From: Candidatus Dormiibacterota bacterium
GTDB taxonomy: Bacteria > Chloroflexota > Limnocylindria > Limnocylindrales > CSP1-4
NCBI GenBank assembly: GCA_035631615.1
Contig: DASQIK010000027.1
Span: 63,446 to 127,445, forward strand
Reading direction: 5' to 3'
DNA length: 64,000 bases
The translations under genes were made by a program, and so were the position numbers. Position 1 is the first letter of the stretch. Every line of letters starts with the position of its first letter. Below are positions 14,206 to 64,000 of the stretch, one piece after another. The notes beneath the pieces are model-generated. The model had not been told where the DNA came from. It did not search any database and worked only from the letters and a program-made list of their open reading frames with translations.

Positions 14206-14208
14206 CCC

Positions 14209-45736: not shown

Positions 45737-45763
45737 GTCGCGCTCCTTTCGAGCGATCTCAGA

Positions 45764-46177: not shown

Positions 46178-46197
46178 CGGACGTTCCTTCCCGCTGG

Positions 46198-46542: not shown

Positions 46543-46620
46543 GACCCGAGCATGCAGGCATGCATGTTTGCGCATGAGTGCCGTCGGGCCCGTTGCGACG
46601 GGCCTTCGGAACCGAAATCC

Positions 46621-48335: not shown

Positions 48336-48589
48336 CGGGGGCCTCCTGGGCTCGGCAGTGCGTCCCGGGCGTCGGTCGACGCCCGAGCGGTGGTCAGCGT
48401 TCGGATGAGCTCGCCGGCCTCGTCGGCGTCGAGCCGCCGGAGCACGTTGCCCGCACCGACGAGCACCCAGTCACCGACGCCGGTCGATGGCTCGAGCAAC
48501 GTCGACGCGCGGCGACGATTCCCGTCGGCCTCGACGACGGCGCCCGCCTCGTCCACGGCGACCACGCGACCGGGGAACGAGATGCACAT
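48332..48589 (-). CDS. hypC: HypC/HybG/HupF family [NiFe]-hydrogenase maturation chaperone
   Basis: N-terminal 'MCISFPGRVVAV' matches the HypC signature MC(L/I)(A/G/S)(I/V/F)P. 85 aa; overlaps the EamA start by 4 nt. Confidence 0.7.
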   Translation of the reverse strand: MCISFPGRVVAVDEAGAVVEADGNRRRASTLLEPSTGVGDWVLVGAGNVLRRLDADEAGELIRTLTTARASTDARDALPSPGGPR

Positions 48590-48753
48590 CGATCAGGTGC
48601 CTCGGGCTGCGTGCGGATTGCACAAGTGCCGGCTCACGCTCCCACTCTCGCGCTACCGGCACTGCCACGGGAGAGCCGACGGTCACTCGGGACGGGCCAC
48701 TGGGCTCGCCCGCGAGGGCCAACCGGCACGTGGCCCGATCAGCCGGGCGCGGC

Positions 48754-51270
48754 TCAGGCGATCCACGCGCGACGGGTCACCGCCCGGGCGACCTGAGCGA
48801 CGACCGCGGGGGCCAGTGCGACGACTGCGACGAGCGCCCAATCGAGTGCCCCGAGCGGCTGCGCGCGGAAGGCGTCGGCCAGTGCCGGGGCGAACGGCAT
48901 CGCCGCCTGGATGGCCACCACCGCGAGGCATGCCGCGAGGAGGAACCCGTTTCGGGAGAGCCGCGTGATCGGCTCGGTGAGGCTCCGGTTGGCGTACGCA
49001 CGCACGGCCTGCGCACACACGAGCGCGGTGTAGGCCAGCCACTGGCCGTGCGCCGGGCCCTGGGGGTCGGAGACAAGCAGCAGCAGCGCCGCGATCGCGC
49101 TGAACGATCCCGCCAGGCTGATGCGCGCCAGTAGCCCCGACGTCAGCAGCGGCGTGGCGACCGATCGCGGCTTGCGCGTCATCACGTCCGGTTCCGCCGG
49201 CTCACGCTCGAATGCGACGGAGGCGGAGAGGTCGATGAACAGCTCGAGCCACAGGATCTGTATGGGCAGGAGGGGGCGCCCGAACCCCGCGAGCGTGGCG
49301 ATGAGGAGGAAACCCAGCAGTGCCACGTGGGTCGACACGAGGAAGACCAGGCCCTTCTGGACGTTGTCGACGATGCGTCGGCCCTCGCGCATGCCGTAGA
49401 CCAACGTGCTGAACGAGTCGTCGCCGAGGACCAGGTCCGACGCCTCGCGTGCCACCGCCGTGCCGCTGCCCATCGCGACCGCGACGTCGGCGGCCTGCAG
49501 CGCCGGAGCGTCGTTGACGCCGTCGCCGGTCACCGCGACGAGGCGCCCGGAGGCGCGCGCCACCTGGACGAGGCGGCGCTTCTGGTCCGGCGTGCTTCGC
49601 GCGATGACCCGCATGCCCGGCAGATGCCCGGCGAGCTCGGCGTCGGACCACCCTTCGAGGTCGGCGCCGAGCACGACGCCGCCATCCCCGAGGCCGGCCT
49701 CGCGAGCGATTGCCAGCGCGGTCGACGGGTGATCGCCGGTGATCATCACGACCTGGATGCCCGCTGCATGCGCGGCGGCAGTCGCGTCGCGAATGCCGGG
49801 GCGAAGCGCGTCCGCGAAGCCGATGAGGCCGCGCAGCGTCCAGGACCCGCCATCGGGACGACGGGCGACGCCGACCACGCGCTCCCCACGGGCCGCGGCA
49901 GCGACGATGGCCTCGTGCCACGTGCCAAGCGCCGCTCCCGTCGTGCCGGCGAGCCGGGCGACGACCTCGGGCGCGCCGATCACCAGCGTCTCCGACGCAC
50001 CCCCCCGTCGGGCGGTCGTCGAGGTGTACGGCCGGCCGTCGGCAAACGGCTCGGTCGAGATGAGATCCGCGACCTCGAGCTCGAGGCTCCCTCCGCCGGC
50101 AGCGACGGCGGCGGCAAGCGCGCCGGTGAACGACGTTGTTCCGGTCCCTTGCTCGTGCGACCACGCGTCGTCCTCCGCGCGGAGCGCGTCGATCAGCAGT
50201 CCGAGGCGCGCATCGTCGACGGCGAGCGGTCCTTCGGGGGTGATGACCGAGGCCACCTCGAGGCGGTTCGCGGTGAGCGTGCCCGTCTTATCGGTCACGA
50301 CCAGATCGACTGCGCCCAGGATCTCCTCGGCGTTGAGGCGCCGGACGAGGACGCCGCGGCGCAGGAGTCGGAACGCCCCGAGGCCGAGGATCACCGCGAG
50401 GAGCACCGGCGGTTCCTCCGGAATCGCGGCGATCGCGGCCGAGATGCCCGCGAGGAGGTTGTCGCCGAGCGGGCTGCCGCGCAGGAAGCCGAGGCCGCTC
50501 GTGATGCTGATCAGCGCGACCGCGACCACGAGGAGGATCCGGACCAACCGGTCGAGCTCGCGCTGCAGGGGCGACCGCCGACGCTCGCGCGTCGCGAGCC
50601 CACCGGCGATCCGCCCGACCTCGGTTCCAGCCCCGATGGCGACGACGATCCCCTCGCCACGGCCGGCGACGACGCTGGTACCGGCGTAGGCCATCGAACG
50701 CCGATCGGCCAGCACGGCATCGGCAGGGTCCGGCGTGATCGCAACCGGCTCGGGCACTGACTCGCCGGTCAACACGCTCCGGTCGATCGTCAGGCGGTCG
50801 GCCCTGACCACGCGCAGATCGGCGGGGACCACATCGCCGACGCGGACGACCGCGATGTCACCTGGGACGATGTCGGCCGCCGCGATCTCGAACACCTGGC
50901 CGGCGCGGCGGACACGCGCCACCGGCGCCGAAGCGGCGCGCAGCGCCTCGAGCGCGCGTTCGCCACGGAACTCGGTGACGACATCCGCGCCGACGATGGG
51001 CACGAGGCCGGCCAGGATCAGGAGCCCATCGCGGATCTCGCCGAGGGCGATCGCACCGAGGCCTGCAATGAGGAGGAGGACGACGAACGGCTCCGTTGCC
51101 GCATCGAGCACCATGCGCCAGACGGACGGCGTCGTGCTGCGCTCGATCGCATTCGGGCCCGATGCGGCGGCGCGCCGCGCGACCTCCTCCCGATCGAGAC
51201 CCACCGCAGGGTCAACCATCAGGCGCTCAGCCACAGCGCCGGCGCTCGAGCTGTGTGGGGAAAGCTGCAT
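48754..51270 (-). CDS. cation-translocating P-type ATPase (P2/P3-type)
   Basis: 'DKTGTLT' phosphorylation motif, 'MITGDHPSTA' (TGD), 'VAVTGDGVNDAPAL' (GDGxND hinge), and 10 TM helices. Start at internal Met 'MQLSPHSS'; N-terminal extension rejected. Confidence 0.8.
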   Translation of the reverse strand: MQLSPHSSSAGAVAERLMVDPAVGLDREEVARRAAASGPNAIERSTTPSVWRMVLDAATEPFVVLLLIAGLGAIALGEIRDGLLILAGLVPIVGADVVTEFRGERALEALRAASAPVARVRRAGQVFEIAAADIVPGDIAVVRVGDVVPADLRVVRADRLTIDRSVLTGESVPEPVAITPDPADAVLADRRSMAYAGTSVVAGRGEGIVVAIGAGTEVGRIAGGLATRERRRSPLQRELDRLVRILLVVAVALISITSGLGFLRGSPLGDNLLAGISAAIAAIPEEPPVLLAVILGLGAFRLLRRGVLVRRLNAEEILGAVDLVVTDKTGTLTANRLEVASVITPEGPLAVDDARLGLLIDALRAEDDAWSHEQGTGTTSFTGALAAAVAAGGGSLELEVADLISTEPFADGRPYTSTTARRGGASETLVIGAPEVVARLAGTTGAALGTWHEAIVAAAARGERVVGVARRPDGGSWTLRGLIGFADALRPGIRDATAAAHAAGIQVVMITGDHPSTALAIAREAGLGDGGVVLGADLEGWSDAELAGHLPGMRVIARSTPDQKRRLVQVARASGRLVAVTGDGVNDAPALQAADVAVAMGSGTAVAREASDLVLGDDSFSTLVYGMREGRRIVDNVQKGLVFLVSTHVALLGFLLIATLAGFGRPLLPIQILWLELFIDLSASVAFEREPAEPDVMTRKPRSVATPLLTSGLLARISLAGSFSAIAALLLLVSDPQGPAHGQWLAYTALVCAQAVRAYANRSLTEPITRLSRNGFLLAACLAVVAIQAAMPFAPALADAFRAQPLGALDWALVAVVALAPAVVAQVARAVTRRAWIA

Positions 51271-51350
51271 CCGTGCAGTCTGGACGACTGACGCCAAGCG
51301 GCCCGCCGGCTTGCGACCGGCGGGCCGTCGGCAGGGAACAGGGATCGCCG

Positions 51351-51665
51351 TCAGATGGCCATGGGTCGAGTCGTGTACCTGCCACCTGTCAGGTACCGGG
51401 TGATCAACTCGACGACGAGTCCGAGGACCAGGCCGCCGACGAGGGCCGGCACGATGGCGAGACCATCCCACACCGGCTCGAAGGTCCGGGCCGAGATGAT
51501 GAACTCGCTGGCGATCACCGCCCCAAGCGCCGCTGCGACACCATCGACGAGCCACTCGTAGCCCGTCCGGGTCTCACCGATGAACTGGGCGAGGACGCCG
51601 AAGAGCAATGCGCCGGCCAGCAGGACCAACCAGCCGCCGACTCCGAGGGTGATGGCAAACTCCAT
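51351..51665 (-). CDS. GlsB/YeaQ/YmgE family stress-response membrane protein
   Basis: 104 aa with three TM helices; 'GWLVLLAGALLFGVLAQFI' is typical of the transglycosylase-associated family. Confidence 0.55.
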   Translation of the reverse strand: MEFAITLGVGGWLVLLAGALLFGVLAQFIGETRTGYEWLVDGVAAALGAVIASEFIISARTFEPVWDGLAIVPALVGGLVLGLVVELITRYLTGGRYTTRPMAI

Positions 51666-51758
51666 GGTTGCCTCCTCCTTTCGACCAGATCCTCGCGAGT
51701 CGCAACGCCCTCCGCCAGAGCCGTGCGGCTCCTGCGGAGAGGAGCTCTGACCCGACGA

Positions 51759-52160
51759 TCAACGGGCGACGATGACCGTGGCGTGGGAGTGCGTCGCGAT
51801 GTGCGCGCTGACGCTCCCCTGCAGGAAACGGGACATCGCGCCGAGGCCGCGCGAGCCGACCACGACCGTGTCGAAGCCACCATCGTTCGCGATGCGCTCG
51901 ATCGTCGCTGCCGGATCGCCGATCGGCTCCAGCAGGTCAGCGACCATGTTGTTCTCGGCGAGGATCTGCTTCGCCTCGGCCAGGGCCTCGGCGTGGACCG
52001 CGGAGTCGTCCCATGGGTCCATCGGAGCGCGTCCGGGGTGGATTGGGACAACGCTCACGACGCTGATCTGCGCCTCGTAGTGTCGGGCGAGGTCGATCGC
52101 CGTCTCGAGAGCGTGATGGGCGGGCTCGCCGCCGTCGTAGGCCACGAGAATTCGCTTCAT
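51759..52160 (-). CDS. universal stress protein (UspA family)
   Basis: Strong RBS GAAAGGAG precedes the ATG. 'MKRILVAYDGGEPAHHALETAIDLA...VVVGSRGLGAMSRFLQGSVSAHIATHSHATVIV' (Usp ATP-binding motif G-x2-G-x9-G-S). Confidence 0.7.
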   Translation of the reverse strand: MKRILVAYDGGEPAHHALETAIDLARHYEAQISVVSVVPIHPGRAPMDPWDDSAVHAEALAEAKQILAENNMVADLLEPIGDPAATIERIANDGGFDTVVVGSRGLGAMSRFLQGSVSAHIATHSHATVIVAR

Positions 52161-52348
52161 GGGTGAGCTCCTTTCAACTTGGCTCACCCTGATCCTCCGG
52201 CGACGCGCGCCAGCGCGGTAGGGCCGGCTCGGCGAGCTATTCGGGACGAGGGTCCTGCCAAACACGGGTCGCACGGCCCTGTGCCTGTCGGCGAGCTGGC
52301 CCCAGCGTCGCCGCGTGGGCGTCCTCGCCGGGCACCCGACATGGAGAT

Positions 52349-54079
52349 GTGCCGACCATGCACCAGCCCGAGCCCGTGGGATCAAGCACGCAAGGCGACG
52401 AACCGATCCCAGTGGGCGAGCGCGGGCGCGCACTGATCGGCCAGCCCCTGCTGAACAAGGGCACCGCCTTCTCCGAGCGCGAGCGTGACGCGTTCGGCCT
52501 GCACGGCCTGCTGCCGCCGCGGGTGAGCACGATCGAGGAGCAGGTGTCGCTCGAGCTGGAGCACGTCCGGCGCAAGGCCGACGACCTCGAGCGGTACATC
52601 GGCCTGGCGGCGCTCCAGGACCGCAACGAGACCCTGTTCCACCGCGTGCTCGCGGAGAACCTCGAGGAGTTCCTGCCGATCGTGTACACGCCGACGGTCG
52701 GCCGCGCCTGCACGGACTACAGCCACATCTTCCGGCGGCCGCGCGGCGTCTGGATCACGCCCGACGACGTCGGCCGCATCGACGACATCCTGGGCGTCGC
52801 CAGCGACCGCCCGATCCGGCTCATCGTCGTCACCGACAACGAGCGGATCCTCGGGCTCGGCGACCAGGGCGCCGGTGGCATGGCGATCCCGGTCGGCAAG
52901 CTCGCCCTGTACAGCGCGGCGGCCGGAATCTACCCGGCATTGACGCTGCCGGTCTCGCTCGACGTCGGAACGGATCGCCGCGAGCTGCTCGACGACCCGC
53001 TCTACCTCGGATACCGCGCGCCGCGGTTGCGCGGCGAGGCCTACGACCACGTGGTCGAGGCATTCGTCGATGCGGTTCGCCGCGTGTTCCCGCGCGCAGT
53101 CGTGCAGTGGGAGGACTTCAAGCAGCACAACGCACTGCGCATCCTCGACCGCTATCGCCACCGCCTACCGAGCTTCAACGATGACATCCAGGGGACCGGC
53201 GCGGTTGTCCTCGCCGGACTGCTGGCGGCGCGGGGCGGCGTCGAGGGCCTTCGGCAGGACCGATTCTTGTTCCTCGGCGCCGGCGCAGCCGGGATCGGCA
53301 TCGCCCGGCTCCTCGCGCGCCAGCTCGACCTCGAGCCCGCCGCACCCGGGCAGCGGCCGGTCATCGCCATGCTCGACAGCCACGGCCTCGTGCATGCAGA
53401 TCGGCACGGTCTCGGCGCGGATCAGCGGCCATTCGCGGCGGATCCGGCCTGGTTCGCCCTTGCCGGCCTGGGCGGAGCAGACCTTGCCGACCCCGTGGCC
53501 GTCGCCCGCGTCTTCCGGCCAACCGTCATGTTCGGCACGACCGGCACACCGGGCGCGTTCTCGGAGGCGCTCATCCACCAGCTCGCGGACCAACCGGCGG
53601 TCCCGATCGTGCTCCCCCTGTCGAACCCGAGCGACCGGTCCGAGGCCAGCCCGGCGCAGCTGCTCGATTGGACGGGCGGCCGTGCGCTGGTCGCGACAGG
53701 GAGCCCGTTTGCCCCTGTCGGGTCCCGGGTGATCGGCCAGGCGAACAACGTGTTCATCTTTCCGGGCGTCGGGCTCGGGGCGCTCGTCGCGGAGGCGCGC
53801 GAGGTCACGGACGAAGCCTTCCTGACCGCAGCGCAGGAGCTCGCGGCTTCGGTGTCCCCCGAGCGACTGGCGACCGGCAGCATCTACCCGCCGATCAGCG
53901 AGCTCCGTTCGATCGCGCGCCGGATCGCGATCGCCGTCGTGCGGCGCCTCCGCGACACCGGCTACGGCCGCCAGTTCCGCGATGAGGAGATCGAGCCGGC
54001 GGTTGGTGCCGCCATGTGGATCCCCGCGTACCGGCCCTACGCGCCCGCGACCGCAGCCGGGCCGACGGAGTCGCGCTAG
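52349..54079 (+). CDS. maeA: NAD(P)-dependent malic enzyme
   Basis: 'LLNKGTAFSERER...LHGLLPP', 'IVYTPTVG', 'FNDDIQGTGAV', and 'FLGAGAAGIGIA' are malic-enzyme signatures and the NAD-binding fold. Confidence 0.85.
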   Translation: MPTMHQPEPVGSSTQGDEPIPVGERGRALIGQPLLNKGTAFSERERDAFGLHGLLPPRVSTIEEQVSLELEHVRRKADDLERYIGLAALQDRNETLFHRVLAENLEEFLPIVYTPTVGRACTDYSHIFRRPRGVWITPDDVGRIDDILGVASDRPIRLIVVTDNERILGLGDQGAGGMAIPVGKLALYSAAAGIYPALTLPVSLDVGTDRRELLDDPLYLGYRAPRLRGEAYDHVVEAFVDAVRRVFPRAVVQWEDFKQHNALRILDRYRHRLPSFNDDIQGTGAVVLAGLLAARGGVEGLRQDRFLFLGAGAAGIGIARLLARQLDLEPAAPGQRPVIAMLDSHGLVHADRHGLGADQRPFAADPAWFALAGLGGADLADPVAVARVFRPTVMFGTTGTPGAFSEALIHQLADQPAVPIVLPLSNPSDRSEASPAQLLDWTGGRALVATGSPFAPVGSRVIGQANNVFIFPGVGLGALVAEAREVTDEAFLTAAQELAASVSPERLATGSIYPPISELRSIARRIAIAVVRRLRDTGYGRQFRDEEIEPAVGAAMWIPAYRPYAPATAAGPTESR

Positions 54080-54624
54080 GCCTCGATCGGCGCCCCGCGC
54101 TCGAAGCCGAGTGCGAATGCCCGAAGGTTCATTGCCACAACCTCCTGGCCACCCTTGGCCGCCAGCTCCAGGAGTGCCGCTCGCATCGATTCCGGGCTGA
54201 CGATGCGACGGCGCGCGAGGGCGCCACCGAGGGCGATGACGCTGATCACCCGCTCGTCACCGACCTCGCGGGCGAGCGCGGAGCACGGCAGCCGGAGGAC
54301 CTCCATGACGGTCCGTCGAGGCTCCGCTTCGATCAGCGAGTCGTTCAGGACGAGCAGGCCGCCGGGCGCGAGCAGGCCTTCGAACCTGGCGAGCGACGGT
54401 GGATTGAGCGCGATCACGATGTCGGCACGGTCGACGACCGGCGACCCGATCGGGGCATCGCTGACGATCACCGTGCAGGAGGCGGTCCCGCCGCGCATCT
54501 CCGGCCCGTACGAGGGCAGCCACGAGACGTGCCGGTCCTCGGCCATCCCGGCATGGGCGAGCACCTGGCCGGCGAACAGGATGCCCTGGCCACCGAAGCC
54601 GCTCAGGATCGTTGCCTGCTCCAC
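54076..54624 (-). CDS. 2-oxoacid:ferredoxin oxidoreductase gamma subunit
   Basis: GTG start 'VEQATILSGFGGQGILFAGQVL' shows the gamma-subunit GFGGQG motif. It follows the beta subunit's stop. Confidence 0.7.
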   Translation of the reverse strand: MEQATILSGFGGQGILFAGQVLAHAGMAEDRHVSWLPSYGPEMRGGTASCTVIVSDAPIGSPVVDRADIVIALNPPSLARFEGLLAPGGLLVLNDSLIEAEPRRTVMEVLRLPCSALAREVGDERVISVIALGGALARRRIVSPESMRAALLELAAKGGQEVVAMNLRAFALGFERGAPIEA

Positions 54625-54626
54625 CT

Positions 54627-55412
54627 TCAGACCTCGCCCATCGCCATCCGCCGTCGATCGACGAGGACTCCAAGCGGGTAGACGCCGGTCACGTCGTTCG
54701 CGACGTGGGCCATCGATTCGGTCGGCGTCATCCCCCACCCGACTGGGCACGTCGACAGGACCTCGACGATCGAGAGGCCCGGCCCGGCGAGCTGGCTCTC
54801 GAATGCCCGCCGGATCATCGCCTTGGTCCTGCCGATCTGGCCGGGGTCCGTGATCGATCCTCGGGCGGCGTACACCACGCCGGGCAGGATGGCAAGCATC
54901 TCGGTGATCGGGATCGGGAAGCCCGTCACGGCCGATTCCCGTCCCCGCGGACTCGAGGTCGTGTGCTGGCCCAGCAGCGTCGTCGGCGCCATCTGGCCAC
55001 CGGTCATGCCGTAGATCCCGTTGTTCACGAATACGACGGTGATCCGCTCGCCGCGCGCGGCGGCATGCACGATCTCCGCGGTGCCGATGGCGGCGAGATC
55101 GCCGTCGCCCTGGTAGGTGAACACGAAGGCGTCGGGCCGGGCGCGCCGGACGCCGGTCGCGACGGCGGGCGCCCGCCCGTGGGGCGACTCGACGAAGTCG
55201 ATCCCGAGGTAGTCGTAAGCGAACACGCTGCACCCGACGGACGCGACCCCGATCGTCTTCGGACCGAGGTGCAGCTCGTCGAGGAGCTCCGCGATCAGGC
55301 GATGGATGATCCCGTGGCCGCAGCCGGGGCAGTAATGCGTCGACCGGTCCGTGAGCAGCGCGGGGCGCCCGTACACGACTCGGCGGTCATCGGTGCGCAG
55401 CCCGGCGGTCAT
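54627..55412 (-). CDS. 2-oxoacid:ferredoxin oxidoreductase beta subunit (TPP-binding)
   Basis: 'HYCPGCGHGII' and 'FTYQGDGDLAAIG...VVFVNNGIYGMTGGQ' form the TPP-binding GDG...NN motif. Its ATG overlaps the alpha stop (ATGA). Coordinates were derived from ORF-table arithmetic. Confidence 0.8.
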   Translation of the reverse strand: MTAGLRTDDRRVVYGRPALLTDRSTHYCPGCGHGIIHRLIAELLDELHLGPKTIGVASVGCSVFAYDYLGIDFVESPHGRAPAVATGVRRARPDAFVFTYQGDGDLAAIGTAEIVHAAARGERITVVFVNNGIYGMTGGQMAPTTLLGQHTTSSPRGRESAVTGFPIPITEMLAILPGVVYAARGSITDPGQIGRTKAMIRRAFESQLAGPGLSIVEVLSTCPVGWGMTPTESMAHVANDVTGVYPLGVLVDRRRMAMGEV

Positions 55413-56455
55413 GGCGTCGGTGCCGTCAGGGCCCACGCGATGCTCAGCCGATCGACGACCTCCCCCGGCGTGGGCACCATGCCGCCGGTGCGGCCGTGGA
55501 AGAACACCGGGGCCGTGTCCACGGCCAGGCGCACGTCCTCGACCATCTGCCCGGCGGACAGCTCGAGCGCGACGATTGCGCGGGCTCGCCGTGCGGCGAT
55601 TGCAAGGGCTGCCGTCGGGAACGGCCACAGGCTGATCGGCCGGAACAACCCGGCTCGGAGGCCGGCGGCGCGCGCTCGCTCGATCGCGGTCCGGGCGACC
55701 CGGGCCGCCGTGCCGTAGGCGACGACCACGATCTCTGCGTCGTCGAGCTGCTCGCCCGCCCACCGAGTCTCGCGCTCCGTGATCGCCGCGAACTTGGCCT
55801 GCAGGTGGCGGTTGTGGGCCTCGAGGTCCTCGGGCAGCAGGTGGAGCGAGCGCACCACCCTCGGGGAGCGGCCGTCCGCTCCCGTGAGCTCCCACGCCGA
55901 GGCATCCCAGGCGGGTGTTCGGAACGCCGGCACGACCGGCTCCATCGCCTGGCCCATGATCCCGTCCGCGAGGAGGATGACCGGGGTCCGGTAGCGTGCG
56001 GCGATCTCGAACCCGTCGGCAACGAGTGCGACCGCCTCGGCGATGGAAGCCGGCGCCAGCACCGGCACCCGGTAGTCCCCGTGGCCGTGGCCCTTGGTCG
56101 CCTGGAAGTAATCGGACTGCGATGGGCCGATGCTGCCGAGGCCGGGACCACCACGCATCACGTTGATGAGGAGCATCGGCAGCTCCGAGCCGGACATGTA
56201 GCTCATCGCCTCGGCCATGAGGCTCATGCCGGGACTCGAGGTGGACACGAGGACGCGCGCTCCGGTGGCCGCCGCGCCCAGGGCCATGTTGATCGCCCCG
56301 ATCTCGCTCTCGGCCTGGATGAAGACCCGGCCGAGCTCGGGCATCCGCCGGGCGAGGCGCTCGAGCAGCTCGGCCTGGGGGGTGATCGGATAGCCGAAGT
56401 AGGCGTCACAGCCGGCCTCGATGGCGGCGTCGGCCATCGCCTCGTTGCCCTTCAT
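55409..56455 (-). CDS. 2-oxoacid:ferredoxin oxidoreductase alpha subunit
   Basis: 'MKGNEAMADAAIEAGCDAYFGYPITPQAEL' is the canonical KorA/PorA N-terminus. The internal Met was chosen over the ORF-finder extension. Confidence 0.8.
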   Translation of the reverse strand: MKGNEAMADAAIEAGCDAYFGYPITPQAELLERLARRMPELGRVFIQAESEIGAINMALGAAATGARVLVSTSSPGMSLMAEAMSYMSGSELPMLLINVMRGGPGLGSIGPSQSDYFQATKGHGHGDYRVPVLAPASIAEAVALVADGFEIAARYRTPVILLADGIMGQAMEPVVPAFRTPAWDASAWELTGADGRSPRVVRSLHLLPEDLEAHNRHLQAKFAAITERETRWAGEQLDDAEIVVVAYGTAARVARTAIERARAAGLRAGLFRPISLWPFPTAALAIAARRARAIVALELSAGQMVEDVRLAVDTAPVFFHGRTGGMVPTPGEVVDRLSIAWALTAPTP

Positions 56456-56508
56456 CAGCTGCGGCCTGGGCGCGGCCGCGGGGCGCTCGACAGTCACCCT
56501 CGGGACGC

Positions 56509-56784
56509 TCATCCGACGATCCTCGCTCGCGCGTAGACCGTGAAGACGGCGTCGGGACAGACCCGCGCGCAGAGCGCGCAGCTCGTGCACGCCGCGGCGT
56601 CGGTGAGGCGGATCGGATGATGGCCAAGGGCGTTCACGGCACCGGTGGAGAGCTCGAGCACGTGCTTCGGGCAGGCGGCGACGCAGAGCTCGCAGCCCTT
56701 GCAACGGTCGCGCGCGATGTCGAGTGGTTGAAATGACGGTGCCGCTCTGGCGCCGGTGCGACTCGGCTGGACGCCGATGGTCAT
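56509..56784 (-). CDS. 4Fe-4S dicluster ferredoxin (oxidoreductase delta subunit)
   Basis: Two CxxCxxCxxxCP motifs: 'CKGCELCVAACP' and 'CTSCALCARVCP'. Confidence 0.7.
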   Translation of the reverse strand: MTIGVQPSRTGARAAPSFQPLDIARDRCKGCELCVAACPKHVLELSTGAVNALGHHPIRLTDAAACTSCALCARVCPDAVFTVYARARIVG

Positions 56785-56995
56785 CGACCACCTCCGACAC
56801 CCACGCTATGTCCCGATCGACACGGTCACGAGTGCCGAACGGCGCTCCCGGGCAGGCCGTTCGGCTGCCACGAGGCGGCTGCGCCGGTTCGGGACCGGAG
56901 GCCTGCGCGCCGGGTGCCGATGGCACTTCCGGGATCCGCGCGCCTGCGGTTGCATGAGGTCGTCGATTCGTGCACACGTCCTGGAGGTCCCTCTC

Positions 56996-57178
56996 ATGAA
57001 GCGAACCCTCACGATCCTGTTTGCCATCCTTGCCGCGATCACCGTCACCGGCGTCTTCGTCCAGCTCGCGAAGTCGGGGCCGATCCCGGCGAACGTCCGC
57101 GATCTCGACTGGCGCCGAATCGTCAAGTCCCGGATCGCCGATCCCGTCGGTGCGATCGCGGAGGAGCTGCCGGCGTGA
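56996..57178 (+). CDS. small single-TM membrane protein (paralog of 42447..42641)
   Basis: RBS GGAGG sits 8 nt upstream of the ATG. 60 aa: 'MKRTLTILFAILAAITVTGVFVQLAKSG...'. Confidence 0.4.
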   Translation: MKRTLTILFAILAAITVTGVFVQLAKSGPIPANVRDLDWRRIVKSRIADPVGAIAEELPA

Positions 57179-57582
57179 TCGCGCGACTGCTCGTCGTGGG
57201 TTTGCTGCTCGGCCATGGGCTCATCCACGCCGCGTACCTCGCGCCGCACCCGCCGGTCACTGCGGGCGGCCCAGCGTGGCCGTTCCAGCTCGGCCACTCG
57301 TGGCTCCTCGGCTCGCTCGGCATGCCGGCCGAGACCAACCGGGTCATCGGGCTGGGCCTGGTGACCCTGACGATCGCGGGCTTCGGGCTCGCCGCGGTTG
57401 CCGCGCTCGGCATTGCGCCGGCGGCACTGTGGGCTCCGGCCATCGCCGTCGGCGCCGCTGCGTCGCTCGGGTTGCTGGTGGTCTTCTTCCACCCCTGGCT
57501 CGCGCTCGGTGTCGCCATCGATATCGCGCTGCTCTGGGTCGCGCTCATCATCGGGTGGACGCCAGGGCAGCTCCCGCGATAG
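57175..57582 (+). CDS. hypothetical membrane protein (4 TM)
   Basis: GTG start overlaps the upstream stop (GTGA); 135 aa and strongly hydrophobic. Confidence 0.4.
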   Translation: MIARLLVVGLLLGHGLIHAAYLAPHPPVTAGGPAWPFQLGHSWLLGSLGMPAETNRVIGLGLVTLTIAGFGLAAVAALGIAPAALWAPAIAVGAAASLGLLVVFFHPWLALGVAIDIALLWVALIIGWTPGQLPR

Positions 57583-57658
57583 GCCGCACGCGCACCCGGA
57601 ATCCTCGGGCGCCGCCTCTTCGGCGGCGCCCAAGGGGCAGCCAGCGAGGCCGGCCCGC

Positions 57659-58261
57659 TCAGGCAGGCGGGCCCCCTGGTCCTGCCGGGCGGTGCGCGGT
57701 GGGGCGCGGTGGAGCGAGGATCGCGCGCGCCATCACGAGCGCGCCGATGACGATCAGCACGGCAGGCCACCAGCTGCCGAGATCCGTGGGCCGTGGCTCG
57801 CCTGCAAACACGCCCTCGAAGAACCAGAGGCCGGCTGCGAACAGGCTGGCCGCGGCGGCGCCCAACCAGAGGCCGCTCCGGACGAGGCCCGCGGCGTGCG
57901 CAAGGCGGCCGTAGACCACCAGCGCAAGGCCGGCGGCCAGCGGAAGCAGCGCCCAGGCGTACGCCCAGCTCTCCCAGTGGGCCGTCTGCGACTGGTACAG
58001 CAGCAGGCCGCCGACGGTCGTGACAACCGCGCCGGCGATCGCGAAGCCGATCCCGCGCGGCGGCGCAGGCACGAGCGACGCGCCGAGCAGGACGACGCCG
58101 GGCACGATCACGAGGAACGGCCACCAGCCGGACCCCATGGCCTCGAACACGCTGGAGCCGGCGATCTCGCGCAGGACGAGCGCGATGGCGCCGACGGCGA
58201 TCAGGAGCACGCCGATCACGGCGCCCGCCGTCGACGGGCGCCCTCCGATGGATTGCTGCAT
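57659..58261 (-). CDS. hypothetical membrane protein
   Basis: 200 aa with six predicted TM helices; Trp-rich 'WWPFLVIVPGV' and 'WWPAVLIVIGALV'. Confidence 0.45.
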   Translation of the reverse strand: MQQSIGGRPSTAGAVIGVLLIAVGAIALVLREIAGSSVFEAMGSGWWPFLVIVPGVVLLGASLVPAPPRGIGFAIAGAVVTTVGGLLLYQSQTAHWESWAYAWALLPLAAGLALVVYGRLAHAAGLVRSGLWLGAAAASLFAAGLWFFEGVFAGEPRPTDLGSWWPAVLIVIGALVMARAILAPPRPTAHRPAGPGGPPA

Positions 58262-58374
58262 GGGCGGATCCTCCGTGCGTGGGCATCAGTGCCCGGCCCA
58301 ATGACACGCCCATCAGCCGGCTCGGAGAAGTGCCATGCGCCCCGATCCCCTCGGGCCGGGCGTCGCCACCGGTG

Positions 58375-60081
58375 CTAGCGGATGCCGGCGAGCTCCTGGA
58401 GACCGCGCCAGTTCGCGAGCCGATCCTCGCGAGTCGCGAGGATCTCCGGTGACGGAGGCCCGTCGGCCGGGAAGTGGCCGCCGAAGCGACCTTCGGAGCG
58501 GGCGAAGTCGAGGAAGTCGATCGCCAGCCCGTCCGGTGTCGCCGCCCAGTCCTCCCGGAGCGCGGGATTGCCCTGGAGTGACAGCCGCTCGGCGTACGAC
58601 TCCCCACGGCGTGGGTCATAGGTGAACAACGGGTATGCCCTCGACTCGACCGCGAGCTTCGCCTGCCGGCTGGCGGCGTCATCGGCGATGCCGTGCTCAG
58701 GCATGCACGCGGCGTACACGATCACGACGGCCGGCCCGGGATAGCTGTTGGCCTCGAGGATCGCTCGGTAGAAGTGGTTCAGGTGGGCGGGTGTCGTCTG
58801 TGCCACGTAGACCTCGCCGTGGGCGAGCAGGATCCGGCCCAGCTCCTTGCGCCGCTCCGGGCGGCCGTGGACCACCTTGCCGAACGCCGACATCTTCGTG
58901 ACCTGGCCACCGAACGTTGCCGTCGACGCCTGCCCACCGGTGTTCGAGTAGACCTGTGTGTCCAGCACGAGCACCTTGACGTCGGCGCCCGAGGCGACCA
59001 TCCGGGACAGCGACTGGAAGCCGATGTCGTACATCGCGCCGTCACCGCCGACGACCCACAGCCGCCGGTCCTGGTGGCCGGCAGCGTCCCATCGCGCCCG
59101 GACGCCCAGCGCGACCGCCGGGGCGTTCTCGAACAGGGAGTTCGTCCACGGCACGCGGTATGGGTTGAACGGGTAGGTGCTGCCGAAGACGGTGTTGCAG
59201 CCGGTGGCGGCCACGATGCCCATCGATTCCGGGCCATGGACCTGGCGGGTCGCCGCGACGAGCATCCGGATCGCCGTCGCCTCGCCGCAGCCCGCGCAGG
59301 AGCCGGCACCGCCGACGTAGCCGATGGCGTCCTCGCCCAGCATCAGGTCCGCGAGCGCCTTCTCGTTGCGGTACTCGGGCGGGGTGACGGGCAGGGACCG
59401 GAAGAACGCGATGTCGCGCCGGAACCGCTCGAGCGTTGCCTCACCGGCGATCGGGGCGGCTCCCGCGGCCGTGGCGGGGACGGCCGGGTTGCCCTCCACG
59501 GCGACCTTCTCGCGCATGAACAGCGCGTCGTGCCCGAGCGCCGTGCAGACCTCGACGCACTCGCCGCAGCCCTTGCAGTGGGCAGGATCGACGAAGATGC
59601 CGAACATCCCGCGATCCAGGCCGCGCCGGGCGGGCACCTCGCCGTACTTCTGCGTGTCGACGAAGTGCGATCGCGCCGTCACCGCCGCGAGCGCCGGCTG
59701 GTCGGCGGCGGCCGCGAATGCCTCGATGCGCTCGTCGAGCTGCGGCGCCGGCACGACCGTACCGAGGATCGCCGTGTCGGGACAGGCGTTGACGCAGGCC
59801 ATGCACCCGACGCAGCGCTCCGCGAGCAGCTCGGGGATGCGCGGCGCGAGGTGGCTGAAGTCGCGCGCGGCCGCCGTCGCCGGCGGGATCACGCTCCGCG
59901 CCAGCCCGATGTCGGCGGGCAGCTCCCGGTCGGCGATTCCCCGCCGGTACGCCGGAACCACGGATCGCCCGAACTCCTCGACGTAGAGGTCCATGTCGAG
60001 CAGTGGCGGGGCGACGGTCATGAGGCCGACCTCGTGGCCCTCCTTGAGCTCACCCGGGACCTTGTTCAGCAGGTCGGTCAT
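58375..60081 (-). CDS. pyruvate/2-oxoacid:ferredoxin oxidoreductase, C-terminal half (ferredoxin domain plus TPP-binding domain VI)
   Basis: 2x[4Fe-4S] 'CVGCMACVNACP' and 'CKGCGECVEVC', then 'GCNTVFGSTYPFNPYRVPW' and 'WVVGGDGAMYDIGFQSLSRMVASGADVKVLVLDTQVYSNTGGQ' (PFOR domain VI TPP motif). Start at internal Met 'MTDLLNKV'. Confidence 0.8.
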   Translation of the reverse strand: MTDLLNKVPGELKEGHEVGLMTVAPPLLDMDLYVEEFGRSVVPAYRRGIADRELPADIGLARSVIPPATAAARDFSHLAPRIPELLAERCVGCMACVNACPDTAILGTVVPAPQLDERIEAFAAAADQPALAAVTARSHFVDTQKYGEVPARRGLDRGMFGIFVDPAHCKGCGECVEVCTALGHDALFMREKVAVEGNPAVPATAAGAAPIAGEATLERFRRDIAFFRSLPVTPPEYRNEKALADLMLGEDAIGYVGGAGSCAGCGEATAIRMLVAATRQVHGPESMGIVAATGCNTVFGSTYPFNPYRVPWTNSLFENAPAVALGVRARWDAAGHQDRRLWVVGGDGAMYDIGFQSLSRMVASGADVKVLVLDTQVYSNTGGQASTATFGGQVTKMSAFGKVVHGRPERRKELGRILLAHGEVYVAQTTPAHLNHFYRAILEANSYPGPAVVIVYAACMPEHGIADDAASRQAKLAVESRAYPLFTYDPRRGESYAERLSLQGNPALREDWAATPDGLAIDFLDFARSEGRFGGHFPADGPPSPEILATREDRLANWRGLQELAGIR

Positions 60082-60533
60082 GCGCGTGGCTCCCGGAGCC
60101 GCTCGGCGGTCTCCTCGGCGAGGGCGTGGACCAGGTCGGTCGTCGACAGGACGCCGATCGGGGTCGCCTCGTCGCCGTCCTCGACGACGATCAGGCGGTG
60201 GATCTGGAGGCGCGCCATCTTGCGTGCGGCGATGATCAGCGGCGTCGATCGGTGGACGGTCTGCGCCGGGCTCGTCATCAGGTGCCGAACGGCCAGGCCC
60301 GGCCAGTTCGACCACAGGTACTCGGTGCTCCGGGCCCGGTTGAGGTCGGTCTGGGACAGGACGCCGACGAGGGCGCCGCTCGCGTCGACGACCGGCAGTC
60401 CATGGACGCGGTGGCGGTCCATCAGCGCCGCCGCGTCGCTCAGCGAAGCATCCGCGCGGATGAGGACGGGGTCTCCGTGCATGCGGTCGGCGACGACCGC
60501 GCCGGTGATCGCATCGTGGTTGGCCAGGTTCAT
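60078..60533 (-). CDS. CBS domain pair protein
   Basis: Two CBS repeats: 'VLIRADASLSDAAALMDRHRVHGLPVVDASGALVGVLSQTDL' and 'HRSTPLIIAARKMARLQIHRLIVVEDGDEATPIGVLSTTDL'. Its stop overlaps the PFOR C-half ATG (ATGA), and the upstream PFOR N-half stop overlaps its own start region. Confidence 0.65.
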   Translation of the reverse strand: MNLANHDAITGAVVADRMHGDPVLIRADASLSDAAALMDRHRVHGLPVVDASGALVGVLSQTDLNRARSTEYLWSNWPGLAVRHLMTSPAQTVHRSTPLIIAARKMARLQIHRLIVVEDGDEATPIGVLSTTDLVHALAEETAERLREPRA

Positions 60534-62473
60534 GCGAGGACTCCCTCGGCCGCGGGCGCAGGAGCCGGAACGGGGCTCCCGATGGCGGCGGTGACGTCGA
60601 TCAGGCCGTCCCACGCCTCGGCGATGACGGCGAGGTTCGCGGCGATCACGCTCGAGCCACGCTTGCCGAAGAATCGGCCGAGGCGGTCACCGACGGCCTC
60701 GAGGACCTGGCCGCGGTCCATGCCTGCGCGCGCGGCGAATGGCGCGACCCGCAGGAACACGCCGACGAGCGCGACGCCCTGCATCCGCAGCTGGAGATCG
60801 GGCCTCGGCGCGTGACGGAGCGCGACCGCGGCCGTATCCAGCGCCGTGACGCGGATCCGTCGGGCGTCCACCTCGGCGCGCGCAGCGGCCGGCATCGATG
60901 CCCAGATCCCCTCGGCCGTCGGCAGCGGCGACTGGATGAACAGGTCGCCGCCGTCCACGAGGCCCGCGAGGGGGTCGCCAAGGTCGAACGCGGACACATC
61001 GTGCAGCGGCACGAAGTCGACCCGGTCGAGCTCGGCGTGGACGCGGATCGGGGCGTCGGCGATGGTCAGGTAGTAGGTCGTCGGCAGGCCCTTCTTCTCG
61101 GAGCCATAGCGCGGATACGCCTGCACCTGCTTGTGGAAGACCTCGCCGACGAGGGTCGCGACGAGCTTGTTCGTGGTGACGCTGCCGAAGCCGCCGATCG
61201 AATGGCCGCGCAGCGAGTAGGCGCCCGGCGGCCGCACGTCGAGCGGCGTCGCGGACAGCGCCAGCGGGTGGCGGATCCCGAGCACGCGCACCGGCCCGGT
61301 CGGCTCGGCACGATCGGCGAGCTCGTCGAACACCGCGACGAGGTCGCCCGCGCCGACGTCGCGCGAGCCCAGGCCCGCGACGAAGGATCTGACCCTGGGC
61401 ACCATCTCACCCTCGGCCGCGGCGTCGTACAGGGCCGCGCGGATCTCGCGGGTGAGCGGGTTGGCGCTCGCGAGCGGCTCGTCGGTCCGCTCGACGACGC
61501 CGACCGCCCGCGCATTTCGCAGTGCATCGAGCACAGCGCGGGAGGGGAACGGTCGGAAGGCCGTGAGACCCACGCAGCCCACCGGCCGACCCAGGGCTCG
61601 GAGATGATCGACGACCGCGATCGCCGTGTCGGCGATCGTGCCCATCGCGACGAGGATCTCGCGGGCGTCCTCGGTGCGATAGGTCGCGACCGGGGTGATC
61701 GGGCGGCCCGTCAGCGAGGTCCACTCCTCCATGGCCTCGCCGAGGGCGCCCGGGATCCGATCGCTGTAGGCCCGCTGGCCGATGCGACCCTTCATGTAGC
61801 TGTCCTGGTTCTGGACGACGCCGGTCATCAGCGCCTCGGCCGGGTCGAACAGGTCGCGGACATGCGCGCGGGGGTCGCCCACGAACTCGCGGAGCAGCTC
61901 GTCCTCCGGGAGGAGCACGTTCTCGAGCGTGTGCGTCGTGAGGAATCCGTCCTGGGCGACCATGAACGGCGTCTCCGTCGCCTCCGCAACCCGGCGGGCG
62001 ATGGCGGCGAGATCGGCGGCCTCCTGGGCGTTGCGTGCGAACAGGATTCCCCAGCCGCAGTCGGCGACGGCCATCACGTCGTCGTGGCCGGCGTGGATGT
62101 TGAGCGCCTGGCTGGTGAGCGCCCGGGCGCCGACGTGAAACACCGCCGGCAGGCGCTTGCCGCTGATGACGTACAGGACTTCCTTCATCAGTACGAGGCC
62201 CTGGCCCGCGGTGAAGTTCGTGACCCGCGCGCCCGCGAGTGCCGCGCCCTCGGCCGCCGAGGCGGACGAATGCTCGGACTCAGGCTCGATGAACCGGAGG
62301 GGCGTTCCCCACAGGTCCGTCCGGCCGTCGGCGACTGCCGCCTGGTAGATCGCGGCCATCGTCGTGGACGGCGTGATCGGGTAGACACAGGCGACCTCGG
62401 CGAGCCGCGATTCCACGTGGGCGACGGCCTCCGAGCCATCGACGATCGCGGGGATGCCGGGGAACCGGGTCAT
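60530..62473 (-). CDS. pyruvate/2-oxoacid:ferredoxin oxidoreductase, N-terminal half (domains I-III)
   Basis: 'IVDGSEAVAHVESRLAEVACVYPITPSTTMA' (domain I), through to 'RGHSIGGFGSVTTNKLVATLVGEVF...' (domain III gamma-like). Start at internal Met 'MTRFPGIP'. Confidence 0.8.
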   Translation of the reverse strand: MTRFPGIPAIVDGSEAVAHVESRLAEVACVYPITPSTTMAAIYQAAVADGRTDLWGTPLRFIEPESEHSSASAAEGAALAGARVTNFTAGQGLVLMKEVLYVISGKRLPAVFHVGARALTSQALNIHAGHDDVMAVADCGWGILFARNAQEAADLAAIARRVAEATETPFMVAQDGFLTTHTLENVLLPEDELLREFVGDPRAHVRDLFDPAEALMTGVVQNQDSYMKGRIGQRAYSDRIPGALGEAMEEWTSLTGRPITPVATYRTEDAREILVAMGTIADTAIAVVDHLRALGRPVGCVGLTAFRPFPSRAVLDALRNARAVGVVERTDEPLASANPLTREIRAALYDAAAEGEMVPRVRSFVAGLGSRDVGAGDLVAVFDELADRAEPTGPVRVLGIRHPLALSATPLDVRPPGAYSLRGHSIGGFGSVTTNKLVATLVGEVFHKQVQAYPRYGSEKKGLPTTYYLTIADAPIRVHAELDRVDFVPLHDVSAFDLGDPLAGLVDGGDLFIQSPLPTAEGIWASMPAAARAEVDARRIRVTALDTAAVALRHAPRPDLQLRMQGVALVGVFLRVAPFAARAGMDRGQVLEAVGDRLGRFFGKRGSSVIAANLAVIAEAWDGLIDVTAAIGSPVPAPAPAAEGVLA

Positions 62474-62976
62474 GATCGTGCTCCCATCGAGGCCGGCTGG
62501 GCGAGGTCGCGGATCGCGCCCTCGATCGTCTGCTCGAATGCAGCCATCCCGGCGCGCAGCGCCCGCGACCGCATCGAGCCATAGCCGAACCACTTGCCGC
62601 CGATCCCGACCAGGCGGCCCCGCGGCACCTGGCCGCGAATCGCCTCGGTGATCCCGAGGACCTGGGCGATCGGCAGCGCATGGGACGAGCGCGGAGCTGC
62701 CGCCTCCATGCGGGTCAGCTCGTCCAGCGAGATCTCGACGATCGAACCGGGCTCGACCCCGATGACCGTGTCGAGCACGAGGCACGCCTCGCCGTCGGCC
62801 ACGTCGATGAGGTCTGATGCATCGAGCTGGACGCAGCGTCGGACCTCGACGCGCTGGCGCAGGTCCGGCTCGAGGCGCGGCAGGACGTGGGCCACCGCAT
62901 TCAGCGCCGCACCATCGTCGCCGCGCTCGGCGCTGCCGCAGACGAGCACCCGAACCGTCGGCGCGGCGAGGGTCAT
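62470..62976 (-). CDS. hydrogenase maturation protease (HybD/HycI/HoxW-like) candidate
   Basis: 'VRVLVCGSAERGDDGAALNAVAHVL' resembles the endopeptidase N-terminus 'ILVLGxGNxLxxDDGxG'. It lies immediately after the large-subunit gene and overlaps the PFOR N-half start. Confidence 0.55.
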   Translation of the reverse strand: MTLAAPTVRVLVCGSAERGDDGAALNAVAHVLPRLEPDLRQRVEVRRCVQLDASDLIDVADGEACLVLDTVIGVEPGSIVEISLDELTRMEAAAPRSSHALPIAQVLGITEAIRGQVPRGRLVGIGGKWFGYGSMRSRALRAGMAAFEQTIEGAIRDLAQPASMGARS

Positions 62977-64000
62977 GACGGCGCCTGCTGGATGGACAGG
63001 TCGAGGAAGTGGGTCGCGCACGAGATGCACGGGTCGTAGGCGCGGATCAATTGCTCGAGCTGGTGCGTGGCCGCGTCCATCGGGAGGTCGAGGACGCGCG
63101 GCGCGAACGCTGCGACGTCGGCCTCGATCGCCGCCTGGTTCTGGGAGGTCGGCGGCACGATCACCGCGGCCGCCACCTTGCCGTCGTCGCCGAGCTGGTA
63201 GCGGTGGAACAGCAGCCCTCGCGGCGCCTCGGTGGCCCACGCGGCGGTGCCGGGCCGCGCCTCCCACTCGACGGCCGGCCGATCCGGCGGCTCGTACGCG
63301 TCCACGATGTCGATCGCGTCGGCCGTCGCGTGCACGAGCTCGATGGCCCGCGCGACGATGCTCCGGTACGGATTGCGCCGGATCGATTCGAGTGCCCCGC
63401 TCGCCTGCAGCGCCTCCCGCGCCAGCGGGTGCAGCTGCTCCGCGTCAAGCACGATCCGCGCCGCCGGGCCGAGGAGATAGGGCAGGTCGTCGGCGCCGCG
63501 CGCCTGGAGGGCGTTGGACCACGGCACCTGGACCTCGTGGAACGCCTCGCCCCACGCCTGGGGCGCAAGATTGAGGCCGTCGTTCGAGACGATCCGGCCG
63601 TCGTTCATCGGGTACTCGCGAGGGTTGTGGAGCGCGACGAGCCGCGGCTCGCGCTCGAACGCAGGTGGGGTCAGCCCGAGGGCAATGTCGACGGTCGCCC
63701 GAGCGAGCCGGAGCGCCTCGTGGAGTGCCGGCTGGAGGGCGCTCAGCTGCGCCTTTCGAGGCGCCCGCGACCAGCCGCCGACCCGCACGCTCACGGGGTG
63801 GATCGCGCGGCCGCCGAGGGTCGCGAGCAGGTGGTTGCCGATCTGCTTGAGCCGCAGTCCGTCGGCCACGAGCTGGCGATGGTCCTTCGCCATCTCGACC
63901 GCGCTCGGGTAGCCGAGGAAGTCCGGCGCGTGCAGCAGGTAGATGTGCAAAGCGTGGCTCTCGATCCACTCGGCGCAGTACATGAGTCGTCGCAGCGCGC
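62973..64000 (-). CDS. [NiFe]-hydrogenase large subunit, C-terminal portion (5' end beyond window)
   Basis: The C-terminal 'DPCISCATHFLDL' (DPCxxCxxH Ni-Fe ligand motif) and 'HALHIYLLHAPDFLGY' are present. The frame is open to the window edge. Confidence 0.8.
   Translation of the reverse strand, partial: ALRRLMYCAEWIESHALHIYLLHAPDFLGYPSAVEMAKDHRQLVADGLRLKQIGNHLLATLGGRAIHPVSVRVGGWSRAPRKAQLSALQPALHEALRLARATVDIALGLTPPAFEREPRLVALHNPREYPMNDGRIVSNDGLNLAPQAWGEAFHEVQVPWSNALQARGADDLPYLLGPAARIVLDAEQLHPLAREALQASGALESIRRNPYRSIVARAIELVHATADAIDIVDAYEPPDRPAVEWEARPGTAAWATEAPRGLLFHRYQLGDDGKVAAAVIVPPTSQNQAAIEADVAAFAPRVLDLPMDAATHQLEQLIRAYDPCISCATHFLDLSIQQAPS

Follow-up and report, generated by a model that had tools for sequence, protein, structure and literature searches.

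Overlapping genes for a predicted group 3b [NiFe]-hydrogenase, its maturation endopeptidase and a split pyruvate:ferredoxin oxidoreductase in a Limnocylindria-type Chloroflexota genome

A 64,000-nucleotide (nt) stretch of a Candidatus Dormiibacterota genome (assembly GCA_035631615.1, contig DASQIK010000027.1, positions 63,446 to 127,445), referred to here as the window, ends in an array of minus-strand genes encoding the large subunit of a [NiFe]-hydrogenase (HyhL), a hydrogenase maturation endopeptidase and the two halves of a pyruvate:ferredoxin oxidoreductase (PFOR). The reading that we favor, with a probability of about 60%, is that hydrogenase (Hyh), protease and PFOR are co-expressed so that electrons taken from pyruvate are vented as H2. 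The evidence consists of the overlapping layout of the genes, the family assignment of their products, and the retention of the arrangement among related genomes.

Reading the minus strand between 61800 and 64000, together with the downstream junctions as far as the stop of the C-terminal half of PFOR (PFOR-C) at 58375, we found five genes linked through four successive 4-nt ATGA overlaps (Table 1). They encode, in order, HyhL (truncated at the window edge), the endopeptidase, the N-terminal half of PFOR (PFOR-N), a CBS-pair protein and PFOR-C. The hyhL frame enters from beyond the window edge and closes with the C-terminus LIRAYDPCISCATHFLDLSIQQAPS-TGA at 62973, and the ATG of the protease gene (62976-62974) shares an ATGA with this stop. 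The protease TGA (62472-62470) in turn overlaps the ATG of PFOR-N (62473-62471), with further ATGA overlaps at the PFOR-N/CBS (start 60533) and CBS/PFOR-C (start 60081) junctions. GGGAG or GGAG is located 7-9 nt 5' of three of the four internal starts (PFOR-N, CBS and PFOR-C). The start codons are backed by 100%-identical database proteins of equal length (P0241, 168 amino acids (aa); P0121, 647 aa), and a full-length HyhL (P0001, HYK95083.1, 453 aa) is 100% identical to the window fragment. The overlaps lead us to infer co-transcription and translational coupling of the chained genes. A scan of 53500-64000 returned neither a sigma-70-like promoter nor an intrinsic-terminator-like site, which is weak evidence at 70% G+C. 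An earlier sequence-only reading of this DNA had described the two overlaps flanking the protease gene and proposed that the hydrogenase is co-expressed with the split PFOR; both overlaps are real, as read directly from the minus strand, and the proposal holds, with the same gene order kept in related contigs as described below.

The HyhL fragment matches PF00374 (NiFeSe_Hases) at 52.9 bits (cut-off 25.8), and its C-terminus runs AYDPCISCATH followed by an 11-aa extension, FLDLSIQQAPS, which bears out the large-subunit terminus DPCISCATH pointed out in the sequence-only reading. Both Ni-Fe ligand motifs are present, RICGIC (RxCGxC) in P0001 and DPCISCATH (DPCxxCxxH) in the window, and both are invariant in HyhL alignment A3. 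That reading had held that the hydrogenase group could not be assigned, whereas the NCBIfam and PDB scores do allow it. Among NCBIfam models, the fragment scores 187 bits with ShyA and 173 bits with HydA (sulfhydrogenase alpha) versus 79 with FrhA and 60 with VhuA; the corresponding values for full-length P0001 are 273 and 244 versus 138 and 121 bits, and the NCBIfam scores of the hydrogenase subunits are all far under the equivalog cut-offs. In the PDB, the top match of P0001 is the alpha subunit of sulfhydrogenase I (9nez, 9e15, 5yxy; 230 bits), followed at lower scores by MvhA (164), HoxH (149), Frh (at most 119) and group 1 enzymes (at most 74 bits). Because P0001 best matches sulfhydrogenase alpha and the upstream subunits of relatives match the beta, gamma and delta subunits, the enzyme is a predicted group 3b hydrogenase of the NAD(P)-type Hyh/sulfhydrogenase class, and by family is not expected to be of a ferredoxin-dependent type. 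An uptake hydrogenase (groups 1/2) is ruled out by the NCBIfam and PDB scores. The contrary arrangement that the sequence-only reading had envisaged, an uptake hydrogenase operon with its own terminator before the PFOR genes, was not what we found.

The window ends inside hyhL; for the upstream subunits we rely on relatives and on the full-length HyhL that is 100% identical to the fragment. Loci carrying the genes of relatives are designated by L-numbers, with one further relative on the P0166 contig. The upstream genes are seen in L004-L007, L104 and L105, with HyhL identities of 81-91% where measured (91% in L004, 81% in L104). The order in these relatives is a cyclic nucleotide monophosphate (cNMP)-binding protein (~155 aa), a fused HyhBG (680-687 aa), HyhS (307-322 aa), HyhL, protease, PFOR-N, CBS and PFOR-C. 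HyhBG is a fusion of an AsrA-like Fe-S beta subunit with a PyrK/AsrB-like FAD/NAD(P)/2Fe-2S gamma subunit, contains a single flavin module in the relatives, and in one of them retains the NAD(P) motif GGIGLAP (GGxGxxP) and the 2Fe-2S cysteines. The best NCBIfam models for the relatives' three upstream hydrogenase subunits are sulfhydrogenase beta, gamma and delta. A ferredoxin-binding small subunit, for which the sequence-only reading had suggested a test, is absent from the relatives, which have a small subunit of sulfhydrogenase-delta type instead. The full operon would therefore comprise genes for a HoxI-like cNMP-binding protein, HyhBG, HyhS, HyhL, the endopeptidase, the alpha-gamma half of PFOR, the CBS-pair protein and the delta-beta half of PFOR.

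A gene of ~150 aa with only a cNMP-binding domain is found in most bacterial group 3b operons (L004, 6567-7034; L039-L095); it lies between hyhB and hyhG in a distant clade (more than 25 loci) and before the fused hyhBG in the Limnocylindria clade. We considered this gene as a novelty and dropped it, since cNMP-binding genes are already known in 3b clusters (PMC12319191, PMC13332983), where one paper calls the product HoxI. The window also contains an adenylate/guanylate cyclase gene at 30917-32878 on the plus strand.

The protease matches TIGR00072 ('hydrogenase maturation protease') at 50.7 bits (cut-off 47.45) and falls slightly under the cut-off of Pfam HycI (PF01750; 22.4 against 23). A profile built from 11 orthologues matches, over its full length, PDB entries 5ija (E 1.9e-7), 5ttx, 2e85 and 1cfz, which are Thermococcus kodakarensis HybD, a thaumarchaeal HybD, Escherichia coli HycI and E. 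coli HybD; a narrower profile (A2) gave nothing at E <= 0.01 in the PDB. TAL-effector repeats that topped the profile search were rejected as spurious, consisting of repeated 20-residue SSHALP...LG matches with zero significant stretches. An AlphaFold2 (AF2) model of the protein (pLDDT 80, pTM 0.81) was compared with known structures using Foldseek, and ranks 1-9 are all hydrogenase maturation proteases (TM 0.48-0.67), led by T. kodakarensis HybD 5ija (E 8.5e-7, TM 0.61/0.67) and then E. coli HybD 1cfz and HycI. Residues D20/D21, D69 and H99 are invariant in the 11 orthologues and align in hhalign with D15/E16, D62 and H93 of HybD; Glu16, Asp62 and His93 are the metal-binding residues of E. 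coli HybD. In comparison with the HybD/HycI/HoxW endopeptidases, the window protein agrees in profile, fold and the positions of the three metal ligands, yet its divergence is large, at 17-23% identity to members of solved structure. The protein is accordingly named here as a predicted endopeptidase of the HybD/HycI type, which would remove the 11-residue tail after the His of DPCISCATH once Ni-Fe has been inserted. The maturation endopeptidase of the sequence-only reading is therefore correct: failure of a profile search, set beforehand as fatal to that reading, did not occur, and the fold and metal-ligand comparisons agree.

PFOR-N aligns to residues 8-608 of the Desulfovibrio africanus PFOR and 6-612 of the Moorella thermoacetica PFOR, and PFOR-C, which carries Fer4 families and TPP_enzyme_C in Pfam, aligns to residues ~648-1109 of the M. 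thermoacetica enzyme (6cin). Because the halves map in this way onto single-chain PFORs, the two genes are predicted to be a PFOR cleanly split at the domain III/IV boundary, with domains I-III, V and VI in PFOR order spread across both. Thr31 and Arg114, the pyruvate-binding residues of D. africanus, are conserved in PFOR-N in a phmmer alignment to 7plm. The model for single-chain NifJ/PFOR (TIGR02176) scores 353.8 and 194 with the two halves, a sum of ~548 that is under the equivalog cut-off of 911. Given the two genes and this sub-cut-off score, the appropriate label is 'split PFOR-like 2-oxoacid:ferredoxin oxidoreductase', with pyruvate specificity predicted. Pfam gave no EKR domain (PF10371) match in PFOR-C, and no extra docking domain was detected in either half using Pfam and the PFOR alignments. 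Relative to the single-chain homodimeric PFORs (D. africanus 1B0P/7PLM, M. thermoacetica 6CIN), domains I-VI, their order and the two pyruvate-binding residues are the same; the window enzyme differs in having two genes, a CBS-pair gene between them and no EKR match. The CBS-pair gene occupies the same place in L004-L011, L104, L105 and the P0166 contig, while L013 has no CBS gene and adjacent PFOR halves. By analogy with the usual behavior of CBS pairs, this protein probably ties PFOR activity to adenine-nucleotide status, possibly as a regulatory subunit of PFOR that senses adenylates.

Linkage between hydrogenase and PFOR was sampled in 17 genome loci and then in an 80-locus metagenome sample. 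Protease, PFOR-N, usually CBS, and PFOR-C follow one another on one strand in L001-L011, L024, L104, L105 and the P0166 contig, with junctions of 4-nt overlaps or gaps of at most ~180 nt and HyhL identities of 70-100% where measured; about 12 independent contigs of Limnocylindria type (L004-L011, L024, L104, L105 and the P0166 contig) all keep the complete hyh-protease-PFOR-CBS-PFOR core without change. All three PFOR-N homologues that were chosen regardless of hydrogenase sit behind hyh and protease genes. In a sister clade (64-67% HyhL identity), the pair EamA-DUF6390 usually follows the protease gene, and PFOR is nearby in about half of the loci. The split PFOR is 1.7 kb downstream in L013 and convergent, 4.5 kb downstream, in L030, while L012 and L015 have an unrelated single-chain PFOR with an EKR domain near hyh, and no PFOR is present near hyh in L014, L027, L031 and L032. 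A Pirellula locus (L019) has a single-chain EKR-type PFOR upstream in divergent orientation. The 17 genome loci had suggested linkage as a general property of group 3b; this was rejected because all 21 distant 3b loci (48-59% identity) for which 5 kb or more of downstream sequence was available had no PFOR there. Because the core is kept in relatives and absent from these distant loci, the operon fusion is, as judged from sequence comparison, a derived, lineage-specific trait of Limnocylindria-type Chloroflexota. The GTDB/NCBI labels of close relatives (Limnocylindrales) are in line with this.

Exact matches are labelled 'Candidatus Binatus sp.' or 'Candidatus Dormibacteraeota' at NCBI, in conflict with Limnocylindrales; these labels look like binning noise. 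In L001, a 2.8-kb contig of a metagenome-assembled genome (GCA_035631955.1, DASQHU010000657.1), the protease is 100% identical to that of the window and PFOR-N is 87% identical, which suggests strain-level recombination at the junction or an assembly chimera. Near-identical copies occur by the hundreds in soil and groundwater metagenomes.

In the favored account, PFOR would oxidize pyruvate under O2 limitation to acetyl-CoA, CO2 and low-potential electrons, Hyh would dispose of these electrons as H2, and acetyl-CoA or acetyl-phosphate would yield ATP via neighboring acetate-forming enzymes. The most likely electron routes would be from soluble ferredoxin to the Fe-S chain of HyhB/HyhS, or by way of ferredoxin:NADP+ transfer into the NAD(P)H site that HyhG retains. 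Of the 'pyruvate-driven H2-evolving or ferredoxin-linked' module that the sequence-only reading had proposed, the pyruvate-driven part is plausible from linkage and neighbors; the ferredoxin link is not what the 3b family predicts. Phosphoketolase (XFP) and acetate kinase genes directly follow PFOR-C in most close relatives, namely L004 (16272-19819), L008, L011 and L105, and the genes before the operon in relatives encode acetyl-CoA hydrolase/transferase, a GAF-HisKA_3 kinase with a GerE-type (NarL-type) regulator, Usp and hemerythrin; L104 has a malic enzyme near the core, and the window likewise has one in the vicinity, together with a second four-subunit oxidoreductase of the 2-oxoacid:ferredoxin type. 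Because of the phosphoketolase, acetate kinase, acetyl-CoA hydrolase, kinase/regulator pair, Usp and malic enzyme, this content points to a putative low-oxygen fermentation island.

Several observations weigh against this account. Classification places group 3b among the hydrogenases coupled to NAD(P)H (PMC5037454), and native Pyrococcus furiosus soluble hydrogenase I (SHI) takes electrons from neither POR nor ferredoxin (PMC3200332). The 64-kb window contains no ferredoxin, FNR or Nfn gene, leaving the link between PFOR and Hyh missing, and the phosphoketolase and acetate kinase genes of relatives are absent from the entire window. The case for co-transcription is drawn from overlaps only, gaps of 90-180 nt before PFOR-N in L009, L010 and L024 could accommodate a separate promoter, the genes upstream of hyhL lie past the window edge and are supplied from relatives, and the distant 3b loci do without a downstream PFOR.

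One rival is simple co-regulation, in which NAD(P)H produced by glycolysis or malic enzyme is reoxidized by Hyh, PFOR takes over from pyruvate dehydrogenase when O2 is low, ferredoxin goes to other consumers, and the shared transcript reflects one hypoxia regulon. The NAD(P) coupling of the family and the retained NAD(P) motif agree with it, as do the behavior of native SHI, the presence of a non-structural protease gene between hyh and PFOR, and the sister clades that have EamA and DUF6390 between hyh and PFOR or have no PFOR. However, two different PFOR types have repeatedly been recruited to the hyh locus, the sampled members of the split-PFOR clade lie behind hyh with the exception of L030, and H2 formation from NAD(P)H alone is thermodynamically poor according to established redox potentials. 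We consider co-regulation alone unlikely, with perhaps one chance in a handful of being the whole explanation.

A closer association than the favored one can also be envisaged, namely a physical PFOR-Hyh complex or 'pyruvate hydrogenlyase' in which the domain-V clusters hand electrons directly to the Fe-S chain of Hyh, bypassing free ferredoxin, with the CBS protein as regulatory subunit. Four successive ATGA overlaps with internal ribosome-binding sites would be typical of stoichiometric complexes, the core is invariant in the lineage, and there is an in-vitro precedent: P. furiosus POR transfers electrons directly to an engineered SHI alpha-delta subcomplex (Hopkins et al. 2011, PMC3200332). 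As in that system, pyruvate oxidation coupled to H2 by a 3b module, there with no soluble carrier, is proposed here. The engineered pair is, however, artificial; it worked only once beta and gamma had been taken out and not as the native tetramer, whereas the beta-gamma part is present here, as a fusion known from relatives. The lack of an extra docking domain in PFOR-N or PFOR-C, the intergenic gaps in L009, L010 and L024, and the non-adjacent arrangements in the sister clade also speak against an obligate complex, which we regard as improbable. In its most elaborate form, PFOR, CBS protein and Hyh would constitute one soluble enzyme with a continuous Fe-S wire, an adenylate gate formed by the CBS protein and a HoxI-like/HyhG side port to NAD(P)H. 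This is a long shot; if true, it would make a group 3b hydrogenase directly substrate-coupled and possibly confurcating. Least probable is an H2-driven pyruvate synthase, with Hyh oxidizing H2 and PFOR making pyruvate for assimilation by carboxylation of acetyl-CoA: group 3b enzymes work physiologically in both directions (PMC5037454), PFOR is generally reversible and a second oxidoreductase and malic enzyme lie nearby, but the relatives' neighboring enzymes (phosphoketolase, acetate kinase, acetyl-CoA hydrolase) belong to ATP-yielding catabolism and lie among hypoxia-type regulators, no autotrophy genes were seen in the window, and moving electrons from H2 to ferredoxin through an enzyme at the NAD(P) level is uphill unless bifurcation takes place, for which HyhBG has one flavin module only.

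Venting of pyruvate electrons as H2 can be set beside several known systems. One is the soluble hydrogenase I/sulfhydrogenase of P. furiosus and T. kodakarensis (3b, alpha-beta-gamma-delta; 9nez, 9e15, 5yxy), which gives the best large-subunit match and the best matches for the relatives' beta, gamma and delta subunits, and shares the Ni-Fe ligand motifs and a C-terminal extension needing a HybD-type protease. The system described here differs in being bacterial, in its fused beta-gamma subunit (685 aa), in the HoxI-like cNMP-binding gene ahead and in the PFOR within the operon, and identity is only as for distant family members. The group 3b Hyh (Hyd3) of Mycobacterium smegmatis is induced through DosS/T-DosR and evolves H2 fermentatively under hypoxia (bioRxiv 10.1101/2023.09.11.557286). 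Both are bacterial 3b enzymes, there in an aerobe-type soil organism, and the relatives here have the GAF-HisKA_3 kinase, GerE-type regulator and Usp; the resemblance of the regulators is by domain architecture only, and the mycobacterial donor is taken as NAD(P)H. The literature searched contained no report of PFOR in the mycobacterial hyh cluster. In cyanobacteria, all fully sequenced strains with the bidirectional Hox hydrogenase also have nifJ (PFOR), which in two genomes is in the hyp cluster or near hox genes (PMC2974642). There too, fermentative H2 formation links PFOR functionally to a soluble group 3 hydrogenase that includes a diaphorase, though with a group 3d enzyme, a HoxEFU diaphorase, a single-chain PFOR and only occasional linkage.

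Downstream of the core, the fermentation island is a mosaic around the invariant hyh-protease-PFOR genes (Table 1). Homologues of the LiaF-TM-like gene follow PFOR-C in L104 (54% identity) and in the P0166 contig. Between this gene and HypC, ~9 kb (about 48600-57650) is inserted relative to L104; the genes of the oxidoreductase region at 54-57 kb within it were taken from the open reading frame list and Pfam. The window HypC is 55% identical to that of L104 and lies within a syntenic block, and in L104 the HypC-to-SQR-like block is located directly after the hyh-PFOR core.

Table 1. Coordinates of the operon genes and their neighbors in the window
Feature	Coordinates	Strand	Basis or remark
[NiFe]-hydrogenase large subunit HyhL, predicted group 3b, 3' part, 341 codons	62973..>64000	-	PF00374, NCBIfam
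Hydrogenase maturation endopeptidase, predicted HybD/HycI family, 168 aa	62470..62976	-	TIGR00072, fold
PFOR N-half, 647 aa (domains I-III: POR_N, PFOR_II, POR/gamma)	60530..62473	-	Pfam
Stand-alone CBS-pair protein, 151 aa, between PFOR halves	60078..60533	-	PF00571 twice, 93 bits
PFOR C-half, 568 aa (domain IV-like linker, 2x[4Fe-4S] domain V, TPP-binding domain VI)	58375..60081	-	
LiaF-TM-like small membrane protein	57659..58261	-	PF22570; 113 nt after PFOR-C
Membrane protein without Pfam match	56914-57582	+	in ~9-kb insert
Second 2-oxoacid:ferredoxin oxidoreductase, 4 subunits	delta 56509-56784, then alpha, beta, gamma to 54076	-	
Malic enzyme	52349-54079	+	in ~9-kb insert
P-type cation ATPase	48754-51573	-	in ~9-kb insert
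HypC hydrogenase maturation chaperone	48332-48589	-	PF01455 63 bits, cut-off 28.5
Block HypC-EamA-DUF6390-ArsR-DsrE_2-TusA-DsrE_2-TusA-SQR/FCSD-like flavoprotein	43466-48589	-	

The pair EamA-DUF6390 recurs near hydrogenase genes elsewhere, following the protease gene in L012, L015, L025, L027, L030 and L031 (L013 has an EamA fragment only) and hyhL itself in L069 and L072; in L076 DUF6390 alone comes after hyhL, and in L098 the pair lies upstream in divergent orientation. DUF6390 proteins may be associated with hydrogenases. The sulfur-trafficking genes of the block (DsrE, TusA) adjoin genes for a 'sulfhydrogenase'-type enzyme. Farther away, genes for a ComB-like 2-phosphosulfolactate phosphatase and a ComA-like phosphosulfolactate synthase are adjacent at 13486-15081 on the minus strand, genes of sulfolactate/coenzyme M-type chemistry in a Chloroflexota-type genome. 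A weak flavodoxin-like open reading frame lies at 42811-43359 on the plus strand (PF00258, 31 bits), ~15 kb from PFOR; no other candidate for a low-potential carrier was seen in the window.

All components belong to known families, and the hydrogenase subunit and protease are already named correctly in GenBank; the tight overlap linkage makes a modestly new arrangement. We found no description of an overlapping-gene operon of hyh(3b) and PFOR in the literature searched, where absence is not proof, nor of a split PFOR with an embedded CBS gene. Should the genes be co-regulated and nothing more, the find would amount to a fermentation operon of an ordinary kind. Among soil and aquatic bacteria, hydrogenases of group 3b are very widely distributed, and NAD(P)H is assumed but, to our knowledge, not demonstrated to be the physiological electron donor of the bacterial enzymes; for the cyanobacterial 3d enzyme, a low-potential electron supply was later found. 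The operon would be a natural counterpart to the engineered hydrogen-producing POR-SHI pair, and the fusion of 3b hydrogenase and PFOR genes in abundant uncultured Chloroflexota is a testable hint that the low-potential electrons of pyruvate may feed 3b enzymes during hypoxia.

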